Below, piece after piece: positions 39,019 through 50,463 of a stretch of 64,000 nt of DNA. The first letter of the stretch is position 1. Each line of letters opens with the position of its first letter. The notes below the pieces were generated by a model. The model was not told the origin of the DNA and ran no database searches. It worked only from the letters and a program-made list of their open reading frames with translations. The DNA comes from Escherichia coli (GTDB taxonomy: Bacteria > Pseudomonadota > Gammaproteobacteria > Enterobacterales > Enterobacteriaceae): assembly GCF_013122565.1 (NCBI RefSeq), contig NZ_CP053258.1; one strand, written 5' to 3'. Both the position numbers and the translations under genes were made by a program.

Positions 39019-40668
39019 TTACTGATTTTCCTCAATCAACAACGCTTCAAGCAAATCGAGATCGTGCAGTAATTTTTGCAGCGTTTCGTTGCTGATCTCC
39101 CGCGTGGCGCGCAGGTGGTACAGTTCAGCACGTTCAGAACGCAATGCCGTCAGACGGAAGCGACGCTCAAGGTTCTCTTCCTGCACGGAACTTTCAACGT
39201 CGTTACGTCCATCGGCGCGACGACGCAGGTTACCAATGACGCGAGAACTGACCTCCGTAAGCAGCTGGTTATCGATATTCTCTTCGGTATCCGCCGCCAG
39301 ACGCTCCTCCATTTTCTGGATCGCCACAATCGCCACTTCTGCCGTTGCCGCTCGCGCAATACGTTCCTCTTTCAATTGTTGCGAATGGTCCGCGACTTCA
39401 ATGTGTTGTAGCAGAATAGGCAACATCACCACGCCGACAAACAGCGAGAAGAGAATGACGCCAGCCGCCAGGAACACCAGCTCATAGCGCGCCGGGAAGA
39501 CGTTACCATCCGGCAAGAGCAGCGGGATTGAGAGCACACCGGCCAGAGTGATCGCCCCACGCACCCCGGCGAAAGACGCGATCAGGATTTCTCGTGTGGT
39601 CCACGAACCAAACTCCATCGGCTTCTTCTTCAGGAAGCGGTTGCTGAACTTTTTCATCGTCCACAGCCAGCCGAAACGGACCAGCATCAGCGCCGCATAT
39701 ATCAGAATAATATCGGTAAACAGCATCCAGATTTCGACGTTAGGGTCGATTTCTGCCGCCATCAGCGACGTCTCCAGAATACCCGGTAACTGCAGACCTA
39801 ACAGCAGGAACACCATGCCGTTAAAGACAAATTCCAGCATCGCCCAGGTGCTGTTTGCACGCAGGCGCATTGCCAGCGGCGCACGGCGCATAACACCGGA
39901 GCGGGTGATGGTCATCCCGGCGGCAACCGCAGCGAGGATGCCGGAAACGCCAATATGTTCCGCAATCAGATAAGAAGCGAATGGCAGCAGGAACAGCAGG
40001 ACGATCTGCGTCGCGGGTTCATCACCGCCCCAGCGGCTGAGGAATCGCAGCGAGCGACCGTACAGCCAGCTCACCACAAAACCGGCGAGAATACCGCCAA
40101 TGGCTACTTTCATAAATTCGACCGTCGCACCGCCAACGGTGAAGATCATCGTCCCCATCGCCACTGCTACGGCAAACTTCAACGACACCAGGCCGGAGGC
40201 GTCATTCATCAACGCTTCGCCCTGCAAAATGCCCATGATTTTTTTCGGGATGCGCCCTTCGCCAACAATCCCGGAGAGCGCCACAGCATCGGTCGGAGAA
40301 AGCACCGCCGCCAGCGCAAAGGCGGGGATCAGCGGAATGCCCGGCACCACCCAGTAAATAAGGAAGCCAATACCGACCACGGTGACCACCACCAGCGCCA
40401 GCGCGAGGCCGAAAATCTCTCGACCATGTTCGAGAAATTCACGGGTCGGCGTTTTCCAGCCATCAGCGAACAGCAACGGCGGGATAAACAAGACTAAAAA
40501 GAGTTCAGGATCAAACTCCACATGCAAACCAAACGTCGGCCACGCCAGTAGCGCACCGATGGCGATTTGCATAAGCGGAAGCGGGATCTGAAAGGGCATG
40601 ACACGAGTGACCACCCCGGACAGCGAGACCACGAGGGTCATTATCAGTATGGTGAAGAAGATTTCCAT
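39019..40668 (-). CDS. yjcE: Na+/H+ exchanger family protein YjcE (CPA1)
   Basis: 549 aa; polytopic N-terminus plus charged cytoplasmic tail. Confidence 0.85.
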   Translation of the reverse strand: MEIFFTILIMTLVVSLSGVVTRVMPFQIPLPLMQIAIGALLAWPTFGLHVEFDPELFLVLFIPPLLFADGWKTPTREFLEHGREIFGLALALVVVTVVGIGFLIYWVVPGIPLIPAFALAAVLSPTDAVALSGIVGEGRIPKKIMGILQGEALMNDASGLVSLKFAVAVAMGTMIFTVGGATVEFMKVAIGGILAGFVVSWLYGRSLRFLSRWGGDEPATQIVLLFLLPFASYLIAEHIGVSGILAAVAAGMTITRSGVMRRAPLAMRLRANSTWAMLEFVFNGMVFLLLGLQLPGILETSLMAAEIDPNVEIWMLFTDIILIYAALMLVRFGWLWTMKKFSNRFLKKKPMEFGSWTTREILIASFAGVRGAITLAGVLSIPLLLPDGNVFPARYELVFLAAGVILFSLFVGVVMLPILLQHIEVADHSQQLKEERIARAATAEVAIVAIQKMEERLAADTEENIDNQLLTEVSSRVIGNLRRRADGRNDVESSVQEENLERRFRLTALRSERAELYHLRATREISNETLQKLLHDLDLLEALLIEENQ

Positions 40669-40819
40669 GCGTTCCCTGTTTGCGATGTTTTTTTATGACC
40701 TGAGAAAGGCGTTATGCCTGAATCCTCATTTTTTCAGAATATCGCAAAAGCTCACACAATGTGCGGAGAAAATAAAAACGGGCAGCCATTGCCACCCGTT
40801 TTCAGAATCATATGAAAGA

Positions 40820-42169
40820 TTAGATAGCCCAGCCACCCGCATAGAAGGTCACCAGCGCCACGGCGATAACGACCGTACCGATGTTCAACTTGCGCCATTC
40901 GCCGGAAACCAGACGACCAATCACCAGAGTCGCGAAGCCGATCATAATGCCTGTTACGATGTTACAGGTCAGCACGATGAATACCGCCGTAACCAGCCCC
41001 GCCATCGCATCAACAAAATCAGCAAAGTCGATTTTCGCCACGTTACTCAGCATTAGCAGGCCAACGTACATCAGCGCCGGAGCCGTTGCGTACCCCGGAA
41101 CGAGGTAAGAGAGCGGAGAGAGGAACAGAATCAGCAGGAACAGCACGCCAACGGTGATAGCCGTCAAACCGGTTTTACCGCCCGCCGCCGTACCCGCCGC
41201 AGACTCGATGTATACCGCTGCCGGAGCTGCACCCACCAGGCCAGAGAAAACGCTGCTCATGGAGTCAGTGGTCAGGGCTTTCCCGCCGTCGATGATCTGC
41301 CCATCTTTATCCAGCAGGTTCGCCTGGCCGGCGACGGCGCGGATAGTTCCGGTGGCATCAAATACTGCCGTCATCACCAGCGCCAGAACGCTTGGCAGGA
41401 CTACAGGATTCAGCGCGCCCATAATGTCCAGGCTGCCAATCAGTGAATTGCCGTTTTCATCGCTCAATGAAGGCATGGCGAAAACGCCGGAGAAATGGAC
41501 GTTAGGATCGAAGATCAAACCGACAATTGAGATACCGATAATGGTCAGCAGAATGCCACCAGGGACTTTCAGTTTTTCCAGGCCGATGATCACCGCCAGA
41601 CCTACCAGTGACATAATCACCGGGAAGGTCGCGAAATCACCCAGCGCAACGGGCAGACCATCAAGCGGGTTTTTAATCACCAGACCGACACCATTAGCAG
41701 CAATGAGCAGCAGGAACAGACCGATACCGATCCCCGTGCCGTGCGCCACACCGTGCGGCAAGTTGCGCAAAATCCAGCTACGGATACCCGTGGCAGAAAT
41801 GACCGTAAATAGCACACCCATCAGGAACACGGCACCCAGTGCGACAGGTACGCTAATATGTTGCCCCAGCACCAGGCTGAATGCGGTAAACGCCGTCAGG
41901 GAGATGGCGCAACCAATCGCCAACGGCAGATTAGCCCACAGACCCATCACGATAGAACCGAGTCCGGCAACCAGACAGGTCGCAACGAAAACTGCCGCAG
42001 GCGGGAAGCCCGCTTTACCCAACATGCCTGGAACGACGATAACCGAGTAGACCATCGCCAGAAACGTTGTTAACCCGGCAACCACTTCCTGACGGACAGT
42101 GCTTCCACGTTGTGAAATTTTAAACCAGGCGTCGAGTGAACCGCCGGTACGCGCTGATGGCGTAGACAT
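40820..42169 (-). CDS. ghxP: Guanine/hypoxanthine permease GhxP (NCS2/AzgA family)
   Basis: 449 aa polytopic transporter. Confidence 0.85.
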
Positions 42170-42589
42170 AAGAGAACATCCCCTGAGAGTTTAATTTGCG
42201 TCAAGATGCGTGGCGGACAATCCCCTGCCAGCGAAACGTTATCTTCCTGCTCCAGGTTTGCGACAATTTGCTGCGTCGCAAAAAAGCAAACGTTTAGCTC
42301 CGCGCATACAAAACGGGTGGTAAAAAAAAGCAAACGATTATCCGGCGATCATAGCGGCTTTTTCAACCGAAGTTTGCTGCTTTTTTCTCTTTTATTGTCT
42401 TGACGATGAAAAACCAGGCAATTGATGCGCAAACGTTATCGTCGATGCGCAAGATTGCAGCGTTATCGAGCCATATACCGTTCAGGATTGCGATAAAAAA
42501 TCGTCTGAGATGACAAAAATATTGCGGCTAAAAAGTATACTTTTACACTGGCGAAGAAACGCCGGTGACATACAATTAAAGCATCAACA

Positions 42590-42727
42590 CCAACCGGAAC
42601 CTCCACCACGTGCTCGAATGAGGTGTGTTGACGTCGGGGGAAACCCTCCTGTGTACCAGCGGGATAGAGAGAAAGACAAAGACCGGAAAACAAACTAAAG
42701 CGCCCTTGTGGCGCTTTAGTTTTGTTC
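42590..42727 (+). ncRNA. ryjA: Candidate small RNA (RyjA-like) ending at a bidirectional terminator; 5' end approximate
   Basis: Plus-strand intrinsic terminator (CTAAAGCGCCC-TTGTG-GGCGCTTTAG then TTTTGTT) at 42695-42727 with no plus-strand CDS upstream; K-12 has ryjA between ghxP and soxR. Confidence 0.3.
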
Positions 42728-43180
42728 ATCTTCCAGTAAGCGTGCGCCGGTACCTTCTTCTCCTAAGCGGTCGCCCGGGTTACGCAACGGGCAATCACTG
42801 CGCGAAAGGCAGCCACAACCAATACATCCGTCCAGTTCGTCACGCAGCGCCACTAAGGTATGAATGCGCCGATCCAACTCTTCTCGCCATTGGGACGAAA
42901 GCTGTTTCCACTCTTTCGCACTTAACGTATGCCCTTCGGGCAACACGCCAAACGCTTCACCAATGGTCGCCAGTGGAATGCCAATACGCTGAGCAATTTT
43001 GATAATTGCGACATATCGCAACACATCACGTTTATATCGTCGCTGATTGCCGCTATTACGGATACTGGTAATCAACCCTTTGCTTTCATAGAAATGCAGC
43101 GCCGATACCGCCACACCGCTGCGTTTCGCCACTTCGCCGGGGGTTAGCAGCGCTTTAATGCGGGGTAATTTCTTTTCCAT
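42716..43180 (-). CDS. soxR: Redox-sensing MerR-family activator SoxR
   Basis: MerR HTH; C-terminal [12 protein letters not shown] [2Fe-2S] motif; 154 aa. Confidence 0.95.
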
Positions 43181-43191
43181 AAATCGCTTTA

Positions 43192-43209
43192 CCTCAAGTT
43201 AACTTGAGG
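43192..43209. promoter_or_regulatory. SoxR operator (perfect 18-bp palindrome) within the soxS promoter
   Basis: CCTCAAGTTAACTTGAGG in the soxR-soxS divergent intergenic region. Confidence 0.85.
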
Positions 43210-43265
43210 AATTATACTCCCCAACAGATGAATTAACGAACTGAACACTGAAAAGAGGCAGATTT

Positions 43266-43589
43266 ATGTCCCATCAGAAAATTATTCAGGATCTTATCGC
43301 ATGGATTGACGAGCATATTGACCAGCCGCTTAACATTGATGTAGTCGCAAAAAAATCAGGCTATTCAAAGTGGTACTTACAGCGGATGTTCCGCACGGTG
43401 ACGCATCAGACGCTTGGCGATTACATTCGTCAACGCCGCCTGTTACTGGCCGCCGTTGAGTTGCGCACCACCGAGCGTCCGATTTTTGATATCGCAATGG
43501 ACCTGGGTTATGTCTCGCAGCAGACCTTCTCCCGCGTTTTCCGTCGGCAGTTTGATCGCACTCCCAGCGATTATCGCCACCGCCTGTAG
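43266..43589 (+). CDS. soxS: AraC-family superoxide-response activator SoxS
   Basis: 107 aa, two HTH motifs. Confidence 0.95.
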   Translation: MSHQKIIQDLIAWIDEHIDQPLNIDVVAKKSGYSKWYLQRMFRTVTHQTLGDYIRQRRLLLAAVELRTTERPIFDIAMDLGYVSQQTFSRVFRRQFDRTPSDYRHRL

Positions 43590-43591
43590 TT

Positions 43592-45178
43592 TTATTGCCC
43601 GCGCGTTAACTCCCGCGCGGGTAATTGCTCCATCCATTGCATAAACACCTGCGGCGGCATCGCCTTCGCAAAGAACCATCCCTGGCAATAGCGCACGCCG
43701 CGTTTGCGCAGCCAGTCAACCTGCTCCTCAGTTTCGACGCCTTCAGCGATCGTTTTTAACCCCAGGCTGTGCGCCAGCTCGATGATATGTTCCGCAATCA
43801 AATGACTGGTTTTATGGGTGGTCAGCGTCTCAACAAACGATTTATCGATTTTCAAAATATCGACATTCAATGATTTAAGGTTATGCAAGTTAGAGTAGCC
43901 AATACCAAAATCATCAATTGCCACTTCGTAACCGGCCTGGCGGAAAGCCAGAATAATCGGCGTCATTTTGTCAACATCAAGAAATGCATGTTCAGTCACT
44001 TCAAATTTAATTTGCTGCGGGCGCACCGCGTATTGCTCTGTTTTCTGATTAGTTCGCGCTATCAACCGTGACGTATGAAAATCGGAGGCCGACAGGTTAA
44101 TAGAAACATAGCGATCGGCATGTGTTGCCAGGTACGCGCCCAGATCGCGGAAGACATTATCAATAACATAATCAGTTACCTGTTCTATCATCCCCTCCTT
44201 TTCTGCCAGCGGAATAAACTCTGCCGGATTCATAACTTGCTCCTGCTCACCAGGCCAACGTAATAACGCTTCAGCACCGATACATTTTTCTGTTTTGATA
44301 TCGATTATTGGCTGGTAATAAAGACAAAGTTGATGTTTTTCGAGGGCGCGTTGCAATTTGCGTTTGGGAGACAAATAGTTTTGTCGAATACGTAGCCAGA
44401 GTAATAGCAGAACAAGACTCCCCAAAATACCGGCGGGTAACGCAAAAATAAGATGATTATAAAAATGGGTTATAAGACGTTGATATGAAGTCGCAACAAT
44501 GGCCGCAATTGGGCGTTTTGTCGAATAAACTGTCGCATATAAATAGCCATTTCGTTGTACGGTTAAATCCTTCAAATGAATCAGCGGAGAAAACGTTGCT
44601 GCCGAGGCCTCGTTGCTTAACGAGAAAAAGGTTTTCGTCACCGTATCATACACACCCCATTGCAATGTCGGGTCATCAGACATCACTTCACTCCAGAAGA
44701 GAGGGTTGATAACCGCCACATAATTTCCCCGCTGCATATAGGTCATTTTATAGCCAGAGAAAAAAGGCGTATCGCGGTAATAATAGATAGAAACGTTAGG
44801 TTCACGCTTATAATCGGCCGGTGCAATCGTATAGCCGTTTACAGGCGCTATCAGCGATGAGCATAAAAAATGGTTATCACGGGCATAGATCAATTCATTA
44901 ATATAAAGATAGCCACGAATAATATTTAACATTCGCTTTTGATGGGCTGGAGAGCAAACTTGCCCCTGATAGCGTTCTGCTGCATCGCTCACTAAATCTG
45001 CCTGGCGAATGACCAGCTCGGATTTATCCAGTGCCAGTTGAGCAAAGGTTCGGAGCTGATTATTCACTTCTGATTTTGCCCAAAGGAAGGCAATCCATAG
45101 CGAAAGAATGATGGGAAAGAGAACTAAAAAGATAATGCCCGGCAACGCCAGTAATTGGTGTCGTGCACGATGACTCAT
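43592..45178 (-). CDS. pdeC: CSS-motif membrane c-di-GMP phosphodiesterase (EAL) PdeC/YjcC
   Basis: N-terminal TM and periplasmic domain; C-terminal EAL domain (EALLRWP); ATG at 45178. Confidence 0.85.
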
Positions 45179-45604
45179 TGCTATCAATTTCCTGCCTGTT
45201 TATACCCGGCCATTGCAAGGTGAAAACCCTGGGCACCGACGTCTTTAGATAAATCTTACGGTATAAATAGCACTTTTTCCTGATTTGAAATTGATACCTT
45301 TTTAATCGTCATCTGGATAAAAATAATTCATTGATATTCAAATTAATTTTCTTCAGGAATGCAGGGCGGCGGGAAGATATGCCCTTAATGCCACAGAAAA
45401 ACCACATAATCTGTACAGCAATAAAAGTCACGACCTAATCTGGCTAACAAACAATCAATTGTGATATAGTTCACAAATTAATGAAACAAACAGAGTGTTT
45501 CATTTTTGTGTTCTGCAAGCCCCGCGATAGCCAGAGTGTACCACGCCTCCCGTGAACAACGCCGCGCTGTCCAGGGCATCGGCTCTTTTCAGAGGAATTG
45601 TTTG

Positions 45605-45886
45605 ATGGCTACCCTCACCACTGGCGTGGTTCTTCTTCGCTGGCAACTTCTTAGTGCCGTAATGATGTTTCTGGCCAGCACACTCAACATCCGTTTTCGT
45701 CGGTCTGATTATGTCGGGCTTGCAGTGATCAGCAGCGGTCTGGGCGTGGTTTCCGCCTGCTGGTTCGCAATGGGGTTGCTTGGCATCACAATGGCGGACA
45801 TCACCGCCATCTGGCACAACATCGAGTCGGTGATGATAGAAGAGATGAATCAGACACCGCCACAGTGGCCAATGATTTTGACCTGA
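45605..45886 (+). CDS. yjcB: Small membrane protein YjcB (93 aa)
   Basis: MATLTTGVVLLRWQLL...; two TM helices. Confidence 0.6.
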   Translation: MATLTTGVVLLRWQLLSAVMMFLASTLNIRFRRSDYVGLAVISSGLGVVSACWFAMGLLGITMADITAIWHNIESVMIEEMNQTPPQWPMILT

Positions 45887-46157
45887 TTTCACTTTCTTGA
45901 CTTTTATCCCTTCACAAGCGGTCGATAAATAGCTTCCTCGGCCGCCCTATCATCACATATCGCATTTTCTTTTAATCAACGCTTGAAGGTGTTGTACGCT
46001 TAGCATCTTCACTATCTTCGCCACCTCCTTGCTGAATTTTATACAAATGAGCAATTTTTGATAGTTCAAAATTTGATTAAGGCTAGGATGAAAACAAATA
46101 AACTGCACTACCTAACGTCCAACGTAATGTTCTCAATAAATTATAAAGGAGAAGATC

Positions 46158-46739
46158 ATGACGATATATAATAATAATATAGGAACTCAAAATACAAAAA
46201 CACTGGAGCAATTTCAGAATGACCTGGTTAAAGCAGATAAAAAATTTGCAAATTCATCAAAATTAAACGCAGTTATTTATAAAAAGATTGATGGCTTTAC
46301 AAATCTTTTGAAAGATCTTATTCATTTCATCACGCATGGGAAAGTCGAGTTTAATTCGCAGCGAGTATCTAAACTCATGGCAGAAGTAACCTCTTTCGAG
46401 TCCAATATTGATGGAACCCCCAAAGATATAAATTTTATTTCTCAAAATGATTATTTACGCCAAACTGTATCCATCAGACAAGATGGGCTAGGCACAAAAA
46501 TAATATTCAGTGTAGAGGAAACCCATTTTAATATAGACCATGGCGTTTTTTTACACGGAAAAAAATGGAGTGAAACAAGATCGCTTCCTGAAGAATTAAA
46601 TATGGCTATTGTTGTTGAAAACCTTAGAAAATTGACCACACAGTTAAACAAAGCCGAGCGACACGAAGTAGAAAGAGAGTATAAAGAATATAAACTGGTA
46701 CAAAGTGCAAAACTGAATATTTTGTATAACCCGGAATAA
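46158..46739 (+). CDS. Hypothetical protein (193 aa), AT-rich orphan
   Basis: Clean ORF with RBS AAAGGAGAAG about 6 bp upstream of the ATG; no recognisable motif; AT-rich by eye. Confidence 0.5.
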   Translation: MTIYNNNIGTQNTKTLEQFQNDLVKADKKFANSSKLNAVIYKKIDGFTNLLKDLIHFITHGKVEFNSQRVSKLMAEVTSFESNIDGTPKDINFISQNDYLRQTVSIRQDGLGTKIIFSVEETHFNIDHGVFLHGKKWSETRSLPEELNMAIVVENLRKLTTQLNKAERHEVEREYKEYKLVQSAKLNILYNPE

Positions 46740-46850
46740 TAAAATAATGAGAGGAACAATCCTTGACTATTTCAGGAGCCGAAATTCATTTTCGACTCCT
46801 GTACGCATATGTTTCGCGTTAAAAGATCTCAATACAAAAGATGCATATCC

Positions 46851-47387
46851 TTAGAACGGAATGTCGTCATCAAAGTCCATCGGCGGCTCGTTAGACGGCG
46901 CTGCCGGAGCGGACTGCTGCGGGCGAGACTGCGCGCCGCCGCTGAACTGATTGCCACCCTGCGGCTGCTGAGGCTGACCCCAACCGCCCTGCGGCTGACC
47001 ACCACCGATATTGCCACCTGCCGGAGCGCCACCACCCTGACGACCACCCAGCATCTGCATGGTGCCGCCAACGTTCACCACGACTTCTGTGGTGTAGCGA
47101 TCCTGACCGGATTGATCGGTCCATTTACGGGTACGCAGCTGACCTTCGATATACACCTGAGAACCTTTACGCAGATATTCGCTGGCTACTTCTGCCAGTT
47201 TGCCGAACAGCACAACGCGGTGCCATTCAGTCTGCTCTTTCATCTCGCCGGTCGCTTTATCACGCCAGGATTCGGAAGTAGCCAGCGTAATGTTGGCAAC
47301 AGCGCCACCATTTGGCATGTAGCGTACTTCCGGGTCCTGACCCAGATTACCAACGAGAATAACCTTGTTTACGCCTCTGCTGGCCAT
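46851..47387 (-). CDS. ssb: Single-stranded DNA-binding protein
   Basis: [28 protein letters not shown]...; Gly/Gln-rich tail ending DFDDDIPF; 178 aa. Confidence 0.95.
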
Positions 47388-47537
47388 GTTCGTGTCTCCT
47401 GAAAAAAATCGTTCTGAATAAGTGTAAACGCGCGATTGTACCATTACCAATAGCGCTTTTACTATGTTGTGACCTCGGTTCCGGGAAACAAACCTGGCCA
47501 GACATTGTTACACAACACTCCGGGTAATGCATTCCAA

Positions 47538-47557
47538 TACTGTATATTCATTCAGGT
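47538..47557. promoter_or_regulatory. LexA (SOS) box in the ssb-uvrA divergent region
   Basis: TACTGTATATTCATTCAGGT, CTG-N10-CAG. Confidence 0.8.
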
Positions 47558-47640
47558 CAATTTGTGTCATAATTAACCGTTTGTGATCGCCGGTAGCACC
47601 ATGCCACCGGGCAAAAAAGCGTTTAATCCGGGAAAGGTGA

Positions 47641-50463
47641 ATGGATAAGATCGAAGTTCGGGGCGCCCGCACCCATAATCTCAAAAACATCAACCTCGTT
47701 ATCCCCCGCGACAAGCTCATTGTCGTGACCGGGCTTTCGGGTTCTGGCAAATCCTCGCTCGCTTTCGACACCTTATATGCCGAAGGGCAGCGCCGTTACG
47801 TTGAATCCCTTTCCGCCTACGCGCGGCAGTTTCTGTCACTGATGGAAAAGCCGGACGTCGATCATATTGAGGGGCTTTCTCCTGCCATCTCAATTGAGCA
47901 GAAATCGACGTCTCATAACCCGCGTTCTACGGTGGGGACAATCACCGAAATCCACGACTATTTGCGTTTGTTGTTCGCCCGCGTTGGCGAGCCGCGCTGT
48001 CCGGACCACGACGTCCCGCTGGCGGCGCAAACCGTCAGCCAGATGGTGGATAACGTGCTGTCGCAGCCGGAAGGCAAGCGTCTGATGCTACTCGCGCCAA
48101 TCATTAAAGAGCGCAAAGGCGAACACACCAAAACGCTGGAGAACCTGGCAAGCCAGGGCTACATCCGTGCTCGTATTGATGGCGAAGTCTGCGATCTTTC
48201 CGATCCGCCAAAACTGGAACTGCAAAAGAAACATACCATTGAAGTGGTGGTTGATCGCTTCAAGGTGCGTGACGATCTTACCCAACGTCTTGCCGAGTCA
48301 TTTGAAACCGCGCTGGAGCTTTCCGGTGGTACCGCGGTAGTTGCGGATATGGACGACCCGAAAGCGGAAGAGCTGCTGTTCTCCGCCAACTTCGCCTGCC
48401 CAATTTGCGGCTACAGTATGCGTGAACTGGAGCCGCGACTGTTTTCATTTAACAACCCGGCAGGTGCCTGCCCGACCTGTGACGGCCTTGGCGTACAGCA
48501 ATATTTCGATCCTGACCGCGTGATCCAGAATCCGGAATTGTCGCTGGCAGGTGGTGCGATCCGTGGCTGGGATCGCCGCAACTTCTATTATTTCCAGATG
48601 CTGAAATCGCTGGCAGATCACTATAAGTTCGACGTCGAAGCGCCGTGGGGCAGCCTGAGCGCGAATGTGCATAAAGTGGTGTTGTACGGTTCTGGCAAAG
48701 AAAACATTGAATTCAAATACATGAACGATCGTGGCGATACCTCCATTCGTCGTCATCCGTTCGAAGGCGTGCTGCATAATATGGAGCGCCGCTATAAAGA
48801 GACGGAATCCAGCGCGGTACGCGAAGAATTAGCCAAGTTTATCAGTAATCGTCCGTGCACCAGCTGCGAAGGGACGCGTCTGCGTCGGGAAGCGCGCCAC
48901 GTGTATGTCGAGAATACGCCGCTGCCCGCTATCTCCGACATGAGCATTGGTCATGCGATGGAATTCTTCAACAATCTCAAACTCGCAGGTCAGCGGGCGA
49001 AGATTGCGGAAAAAATCCTTAAAGAGATCGGCGATCGTCTGAAATTCCTCGTTAACGTCGGCCTGAATTACCTGACACTTTCCCGCTCGGCAGAAACGCT
49101 TTCTGGCGGTGAAGCACAGCGTATCCGTCTGGCGAGCCAGATTGGTGCGGGCCTGGTTGGCGTTATGTATGTACTGGACGAGCCGTCTATCGGCCTGCAC
49201 CAGCGCGATAACGAGCGCCTGTTGGGTACGCTTATCCATCTGCGCGATCTCGGTAATACCGTGATTGTGGTGGAGCACGACGAAGACGCGATTCGCGCCG
49301 CTGACCATGTGATCGACATTGGCCCAGGCGCAGGTGTTCACGGCGGTGAAGTGGTCGCAGAAGGTCCGCTGGAAGCGATTATGGCGGTGCCGGAGTCGTT
49401 GACCGGACAGTACATGAGCGGTAAACGCAAGATTGAAGTACCGAAGAAACGCGTTCCGGCGAATCCGGAAAAAGTGCTGAAGCTGACAGGCGCACGCGGC
49501 AACAACCTGAAGGACGTGACGCTGACGCTGCCAGTCGGTCTGTTTACCTGCATCACCGGGGTTTCAGGTTCCGGTAAATCGACGCTGATTAACGACACGC
49601 TGTTCCCTATTGCCCAACGCCAGTTGAATGGTGCGACCATCGCCGAACCGGCACCGTATCGCGATATTCAGGGACTGGAGCATTTCGACAAAGTGATCGA
49701 TATCGACCAAAGCCCAATTGGTCGTACTCCGCGTTCTAACCCGGCGACCTATACCGGCGTGTTTACACCTGTGCGCGAACTGTTTGCGGGCGTACCGGAA
49801 TCCCGTGCGCGTGGTTATACGCCAGGACGTTTCAGCTTTAACGTCCGTGGCGGACGCTGCGAAGCCTGTCAGGGCGACGGTGTGATCAAAGTGGAGATGC
49901 ACTTCCTGCCGGACATTTACGTACCGTGCGACCAGTGTAAAGGTAAACGCTATAACCGTGAAACGCTGGAAATTAAGTACAAAGGCAAAACCATCCACGA
50001 AGTGCTGGATATGACCATCGAAGAGGCGCGTGAGTTCTTTGATGCCGTACCTGCACTGGCGCGTAAGCTGCAAACGTTGATGGACGTTGGCCTGACGTAC
50101 ATTCGCCTGGGGCAGTCCGCAACCACCCTTTCTGGTGGTGAAGCCCAGCGCGTGAAGCTGGCGCGTGAGCTGTCAAAACGCGGCACCGGGCAGACACTGT
50201 ATATTCTCGACGAGCCGACCACCGGTTTGCACTTCGCCGATATTCAGCAACTGCTCGACGTGCTGCATAAACTGCGCGATCAGGGCAATACCATTGTGGT
50301 AATTGAGCACAATCTCGACGTGATTAAAACCGCTGACTGGATTGTCGACCTGGGACCGGAAGGCGGCAGTGGCGGCGGCGAGATCCTCGTCTCCGGTACG
50401 CCAGAAACCGTCGCGGAGTGCGAAGCTTCGCATACGGCGCGCTTCCTCAAGCCGATGCTGTAA
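47641..50463 (+). CDS. uvrA: Excinuclease ABC subunit A
   Basis: 940 aa; two ABC ATPase modules; zinc-finger Cys motifs. Confidence 0.95.

Follow-up and report, generated by a model that had tools for sequence, protein, structure and literature searches.

The soxR-soxS intergenic palindrome of an Escherichia coli genome as the SoxR operator of the bidirectional soxS/soxR promoter

The stretch of Escherichia coli DNA analysed here (64,000 nucleotides, hereafter the window) carries soxR and soxS as a divergent gene pair, separated by a short intergenic region in which promoter elements for both genes overlap. The features of the locus, in window coordinates, are the following:

42716-43180, minus strand: soxR, 154 aa, MerR-family [2Fe-2S] redox sensor; its start codon reads as CAT at 43178-43180 of the plus strand
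43181-43265, both strands: soxR-soxS intergenic region, 85 bp, carrying the bidirectional PsoxS/soxR promoter
43188-43193, plus strand: soxS -35 hexamer TTTACC, 4/6 matches to TTGACA (hexamer-pair scan)
43192-43209, both strands: SoxR operator, 18-bp palindrome CCTCAAGTTAACTTGAGG, dyad centre between 43200 and 43201
43194-43212, plus strand: soxS -35/-10 spacer, 19 bp, overlong and of the MerR type (hexamer-pair scan)
43203, minus strand: approximate soxR transcription start, inside the palindrome (Table S2 markup of PMC12825309, K-12 sequence; exact base uncertain)
43211-43216, minus strand: soxR -10 hexamer TATAAT, consensus, with 4 bp (43213-43216) in common with the soxS -10 (scan)
43213-43218, plus strand: soxS -10 hexamer TATACT, 5/6 matches to TATAAT (hexamer-pair scan)
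43224-43227, plus strand: approximate soxS transcription start, most likely G43227 (Table S2 markup of PMC12825309, K-12 sequence; exact base uncertain)
43235-43240, minus strand: soxR -35 hexamer TTCGTT, 18 bp upstream of TATAAT (Table S2 of PMC12825309)
43253-43258, plus strand: soxS ribosome-binding site AAGAGG, 7 nt 5' of the ATG (read from the sequence)
43266-43589, plus strand: soxS, 107 aa, AraC/XylS-family activator, with its ATG at 43266

The identity of both genes is firm. The predicted SoxR protein scores 248 bits against the NCBIfam model TIGR01950 (SoxR, cut-off 116.9), aligns over residues 1-154 with the PDB chain 2zhg_A (the chain common to entries 2ZHG and 2ZHH; E=2.5e-101) and carries the CX2CXCX5C motif of the [2Fe-2S] cluster, while SoxS reaches 228 bits against NF007584 (cut-off 174). 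Both proteins are identical to those of K-12 MG1655 (soxR b4063, soxS b4062). The first-pass annotation, whose span of 43181-43265 is precisely the 85 bp that separate the soxR start codon from the soxS ATG, had taken the palindrome in this gap as an anchor confirming an intact soxRS divergon. The divergon is indeed intact, with SoxR and SoxS full length, equal to their K-12 counterparts and above the equivalog cut-offs, but it is this comparison of the open reading frames, and not the palindrome, that shows it. The palindrome itself serves as an annotation anchor only, which fixes the orientation and identity of soxRS in the window.

The surroundings of the pair hold some further elements. 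An Rfam scan detected a single RNA family, the Hfq-binding sRNA sraL/ryjA (RF01408, 153 bits, gathering score 39) at 42583-42723 of the plus strand, and none in the soxS promoter. Encoded on the strand opposite to soxR, this sRNA shares 8 nt with the 3' end of soxR, and a hairpin of 13 pairs at 42692-42722 could terminate transcription in both directions. At the other end, soxS and pdeC are convergent, with stop codons 2 bp apart (43592-43650, minus strand; 43590-43640, plus strand), and a GC-rich hairpin seen by eye, CCCGCGCG...CGCGCGGG, lies just past the soxS stop in the 3' coding sequence of pdeC, where it may be a candidate soxS terminator. An 8-nt inverted repeat, CATAAATC/GATTTATG, flanks the intergenic region itself (43178-43185 and 43261-43268); the start-codon context GATTTATG is common to soxR and soxS and the repeat is lost beyond close relatives, so that it probably reflects alike start-codon contexts and is incidental.

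The SoxR operator CCTCAAGTTAACTTGAGG is a perfect 9+9 inverted repeat with ungapped arms, which occurs once in the 64-kb window, also when three mismatches are permitted, and not at all in 100 dinucleotide-preserving shuffles. It agrees at 18 of 18 positions with the E. coli SoxR box, quoted as 5'-CCTCAAGTTAACTTGAGG and placed between the soxS -35 and -10 elements (PMC4411124). A perfect SoxR palindrome at exactly these positions, acting as a MerR-type operator between the two hexamers, was also the claim of the first-pass annotation, and the hexamers and their spacing bear it out. In our scan for hexamer pairs (43150-43300, spacers of 15-21 bp) the top plus-strand pair was TTTACC-19-TATACT, and the palindrome fills the spacer of this pair, overlapping the -35 by 2 bp and ending 3 bp short of the -10. 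As in a MerR-type activatable promoter, the operator thus lies inside the spacer between a recognisable -35, here a weak one, and a recognisable -10, and the spacer, at 19 bp against the usual ~17 bp, falls within the overlong range of 19-20 bp that marks such promoters. The soxS promoter went unreported in a generic scan for sigma-70 promoters and terminators (42150-43700), as expected, because that scan covered only spacers of 16-18 bp; the two results are not contradictory.

Perfect palindromes of 18 bp are seen three times in the window, against 0.24 expected under uniform composition, which could suggest that this one is there by chance or plays a purely structural part, as a cruciform, an RNA hairpin or terminator, or an HpaI site (GTTAAC) with symmetric flanks, and has no regulatory role. 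A perfect 18-bp palindrome per se is not very rare; the presence of CCTCAAGTTAACTTGAGG at the soxS promoter is, however, far beyond chance. The sequence, absent from all shuffles, equals an experimentally defined binding site (PMC4411124, PMC12825309), and mutation of this site abolishes SoxR binding (PMC12825309). As for a hairpin or terminator, the palindrome is not followed by a T-run, and neither transcript would carry the whole hairpin, because the soxS mRNA starts downstream of the palindrome and the soxR mRNA inside it. We therefore regard a chance or structural origin as extremely improbable.

The two other perfect 18-bp palindromes lie far from soxRS. One of them, GTTATTGGTACCAATAAC (20719-20736), is found within fdhF, about 22 nt upstream of an in-frame TGA (20758-20760), presumably the selenocysteine codon, which splits the mechanical open reading frame; of the 5420 matching E. 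coli records, 5415 show at least 99% identity across this region. The other, ATTATTAAATTTAATAAT (52998-53015), sits at the 3' end of a hypothetical 180-aa open reading frame (52463-53005) adjoining tyrB, in a region that is more variable in E. coli, with only 90-95% identity in 1496 records.

On the minus strand, the consensus TATAAT and its -35 partner form the soxR promoter, which overlaps the soxS promoter and diverges from it. The sequence identical to ours has been dissected experimentally (Warman et al., NAR 2026; PMC12825309) as a bidirectional promoter whose -10 region is shared, and Table S2 of that work gives the 18-bp soxR spacer, the TATAAT and the start sites by cappable-seq. We read the soxS and soxR starts from the cappable-seq underlining in this table, part of whose formatting did not survive in the text version; so read, they lie about 23 bp apart, with the exact bases uncertain. 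Our own scan favoured for the soxR -35 the adjacent register TCGTTA with a 17-bp spacer. The mutants of the same table fit these assignments on both strands, as 'soxS down' destroys the -35 TTTACC and 'soxR up' turns TTCGTT into TTGACA (PMC12825309, Table S2). Overlapping -10 elements on opposite strands and divergent starts 10-23 bp apart are the marks of the Warman/Grainger class of bidirectional promoters, and both are found here.

The same work describes how SoxR acts on the two promoters. In gel shifts SoxR formed one complex, which was abolished by mutation of the complete site. A second SoxR site, predicted as a partial half-site between the shared -10 and the soxR -35 (probably CCCCAAC, 43219-43225), was mutated with no effect on SoxR binding and can be set aside (PMC12825309). 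In vitro, SoxR strongly activated soxS and simultaneously blocked soxR, by covering the start site of soxR together with a portion of the soxR -10, and the soxS core elements were described as 'a sub-optimal 19 bp' apart (PMC12825309). The 19-bp soxS spacer, with untwisting of the spacer in the MerR manner, is also reported in PMC9303308 (citing Hidalgo & Demple 1997), and the crystal structure of SoxR with DNA, as summarised in PMC4551924, reveals a bent and twisted DNA in which the distance from -10 to -35 is shortened.

Could the palindrome be an operator for soxR autorepression only, with no role in soxS activation? Such a role would agree with the minus-strand TATAAT (43216-43211), which puts the soxR start inside the palindrome, and with the persistence of soxR repression by SoxR in vitro when the soxS -35 is destroyed (PMC12825309). 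The very same in vitro experiments show, however, the strong activation of soxS, and an operator for autorepression alone would not need the soxS hexamers and their 19-bp spacing to stay invariant in 58 of 58 species among the matches listed (see below). Autorepression is an additional function of the site and not an alternative to activation, and we consider it very unlikely that it is the only one. The palindrome is dual-purpose: the activation site of soxS and the autorepression operator of the overlapping soxR promoter, the second of these roles being absent from the first-pass annotation.

A different reading keeps the operator and changes the protein, so that another MerR-family regulator (CueR, ZntR) or SoxS itself, and not SoxR, would bind here. 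The architecture is common to operators of the MerR family, and SoxS had a modest repressive effect on both transcripts in vitro (PMC12825309). Nonetheless, the sequence is the SoxR box (PMC4411124), mutation of the complete site leaves no SoxR binding (PMC12825309), and the adjoining divergent gene encodes SoxR by the equivalog model, with the CueR, ZntR and MerR models far below their cut-offs (40 bits for the MerR model). Regarding SoxS, the Mar/Sox box consensus AYNGCACNNWNNRYYAAAY had no match with up to three mismatches in a scan of 43120-43330. Binding by a regulator other than SoxR thus deserves next to no weight, and SoxR stands as the protein that would occupy the palindrome.

How far does the evidence from K-12 extend to this genome? 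Around the promoter, 165 bp match both K-12 MG1655 and the O157:H7 strain TR01 at 100% identity, so the alignment to a characterised soxS promoter that the first-pass annotation had called for leaves no differences, and the 85-bp intergenic region has an exact copy in K-12 MG1655. The 874 bp bounded by the soxR and soxS stops carry 11 substitutions relative to K-12, all of them synonymous and none intergenic, and K-12 MG1655 keeps the same gene order (ghxP, ryjA/sraL, soxR, soxS, pdeC). The soxS/soxR promoter described here is the K-12 promoter itself, already known, and adds no new biology. Within the species, 5406 of 5426 complete E. coli genomes match the 165-bp promoter region at 99% identity or more. 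For a 901-bp query spanning the promoter, soxR, soxS and the 3' end of pdeC, the identity in complete E. coli genomes is mostly 95-99%; the promoter is therefore more constrained than the flanking coding sequence.

Two observations within E. coli concern the background of this sequence and a natural variant of the locus. The 20-kb stretch from 30000 to 50000 keeps its gene order, and its best identity to any of the 5426 complete E. coli genomes is 97.8%; the source appears, from the sequence, to be a somewhat divergent Escherichia lineage, absent from the complete genomes. In one complete genome, that of E. coli E138 (NZ_AP022351.1, a human isolate), the SoxR box and the soxS -10 are split apart by an IS1X4 copy (L123 2700-3510, approximately window 43205-43214), which is flanked by a 9-bp target duplication, GAGGAATTA, and moves the -35 and the operator roughly 0.8 kb away from the -10. 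Judged by its sequence, this insertion is a case in which the soxS promoter has been disrupted or rewired in nature.

Beyond E. coli, an exact scan for the 18-mer, with one genome per species (298 Gb), returned at least 120 loci. This set was selected on the exact 18-mer, and conservation of the palindrome is then given by construction, so that the flanks alone are informative. Among the matches listed, a soxR homologue lies divergently within 250 bp in 94 of the 120 loci, against about four matches expected by chance in 298 Gb (our own arithmetic, uniform base composition), a further argument against a palindrome that is there by accident. The remaining 26 of the 120 loci listed, with no soxR within 250 bp, include a Bombilactobacillus genome and a genome bin of Candidatus Berkelbacteria, where the 18-mers may be chance matches or contamination. 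The exact 18-mer also extends, unchanged, to very distant lineages, among them Nonomuraea, Streptomyces and MAGs of Acidobacteriaceae, Opitutaceae and Flavobacteriaceae.

The flanks are highly constrained wherever soxS accompanies soxR. Among the matches listed, 58 loci are soxR-soxS pairs of Enterobacterales (Escherichia, Citrobacter, Enterobacter, Klebsiella, Pantoea, Erwinia and others), and all 58 have TTTACC, the 19-bp spacer and TATACT without variation. From the C that precedes the -35 (CTTTACC) to TATACT the listed loci are essentially invariant, while the flanking columns drop to 30-70% identity; the whole 32-bp block CTTTACCTCAAGTTAACTTGAGGAATTATACT, which takes in the AAT linker of 3 bp and the base preceding the -35, shows one substitution in one of these 58 loci. 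The columns of the soxR -35 are only moderately conserved across Enterobacterales (loci among the matches listed). It is conceivable, but in our opinion unlikely, that the invariance of CTTTACCTCAAGTTAACTTGAGGAATTATACT points to an as yet undescribed constraint, such as a joint demand of the overlapping -10 elements and the distortion induced by SoxR; more probably, it is already accounted for by the published architecture of the bidirectional promoter.

A second group of loci carries soxR only (36 among the matches listed), in genomes of Shewanella, Vibrio, Pseudomonas, alphaproteobacteria, an Acidobacteriaceae MAG and others. Among these, TTGACC or TTTACC stands in register in 35 of 36. In 30 of 36, TAnnnT follows with the 19-bp register, and moving the register by 1-3 bp lowers this count to 0-1.

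Taken together, the palindrome is almost certainly the operator of a single SoxR homodimer in a bidirectional soxS/soxR promoter that is switched by oxidation and would operate in the source strain as it does in K-12. Identity of the sequence, geometry, intact genes and conservation are observed here; for binding, activation, autorepression and DNA distortion we rely on the papers on K-12, and we infer from them how the promoter would work in this strain. The minus-strand promoter (TTCGTT, 18 bp, TATAAT) would supply a low level of SoxR, which would sit on the dyad in every redox state. Because they are 19 bp apart, TTTACC and TATACT would be out of phase for the sigma-70 RNA polymerase, and basal transcription of soxS would therefore be low. 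Redox-cycling drugs, superoxide stress or nitric oxide would oxidise the [2Fe-2S] clusters of SoxR, and the oxidised dimer would then bend and untwist the operator, effectively shortening the spacer and realigning the hexamers, so that soxS transcription would rise sharply. The SoxS protein would in turn switch on its regulon (sodA, fumC, acrAB and others); to our knowledge, soxS is the only direct SoxR target in enterics. Since the soxR start and part of the soxR -10 would lie under the bound dimer, the same binding event would repress soxR.

Certain mutations in the promoter or in SoxR have been associated with constitutive expression of soxS and with resistance to multiple drugs. By its sequence, the superoxide and redox-drug switch of this genome is wild type, with no changes of the constitutive-soxS kind in either the promoter or SoxR.

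The arrangement has well-known relatives. The founding example of the family is MerR at the mer promoter of Tn501/Tn21, where, as at soxS, a dyad operator occupies an overlong 19-bp spacer and the regulator gene is divergent; like SoxR, MerR remains on its site and activates through untwisting of the DNA (PMC9303308, PMC4551924). The two systems differ in the operator sequence and in the signal, which is the binding of Hg(II) for MerR and the oxidation of [2Fe-2S] for SoxR. Closer in sequence is the mfsA-soxR region of Stenotrophomonas maltophilia, in which the SoxR box lies between the -35 and the -10 of a promoter with a 19-bp spacer, and the divergent soxR is autorepressed via the same site (PMC4411124). 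The non-enteric species with a SoxR box differ from the enterics in that they are without soxS, and SoxR directly controls a gene for an efflux pump or an oxidoreductase; in these loci TTGACC is the usual -35, and the box often carries a few deviating positions, with 14 of 18 matches in S. maltophilia.
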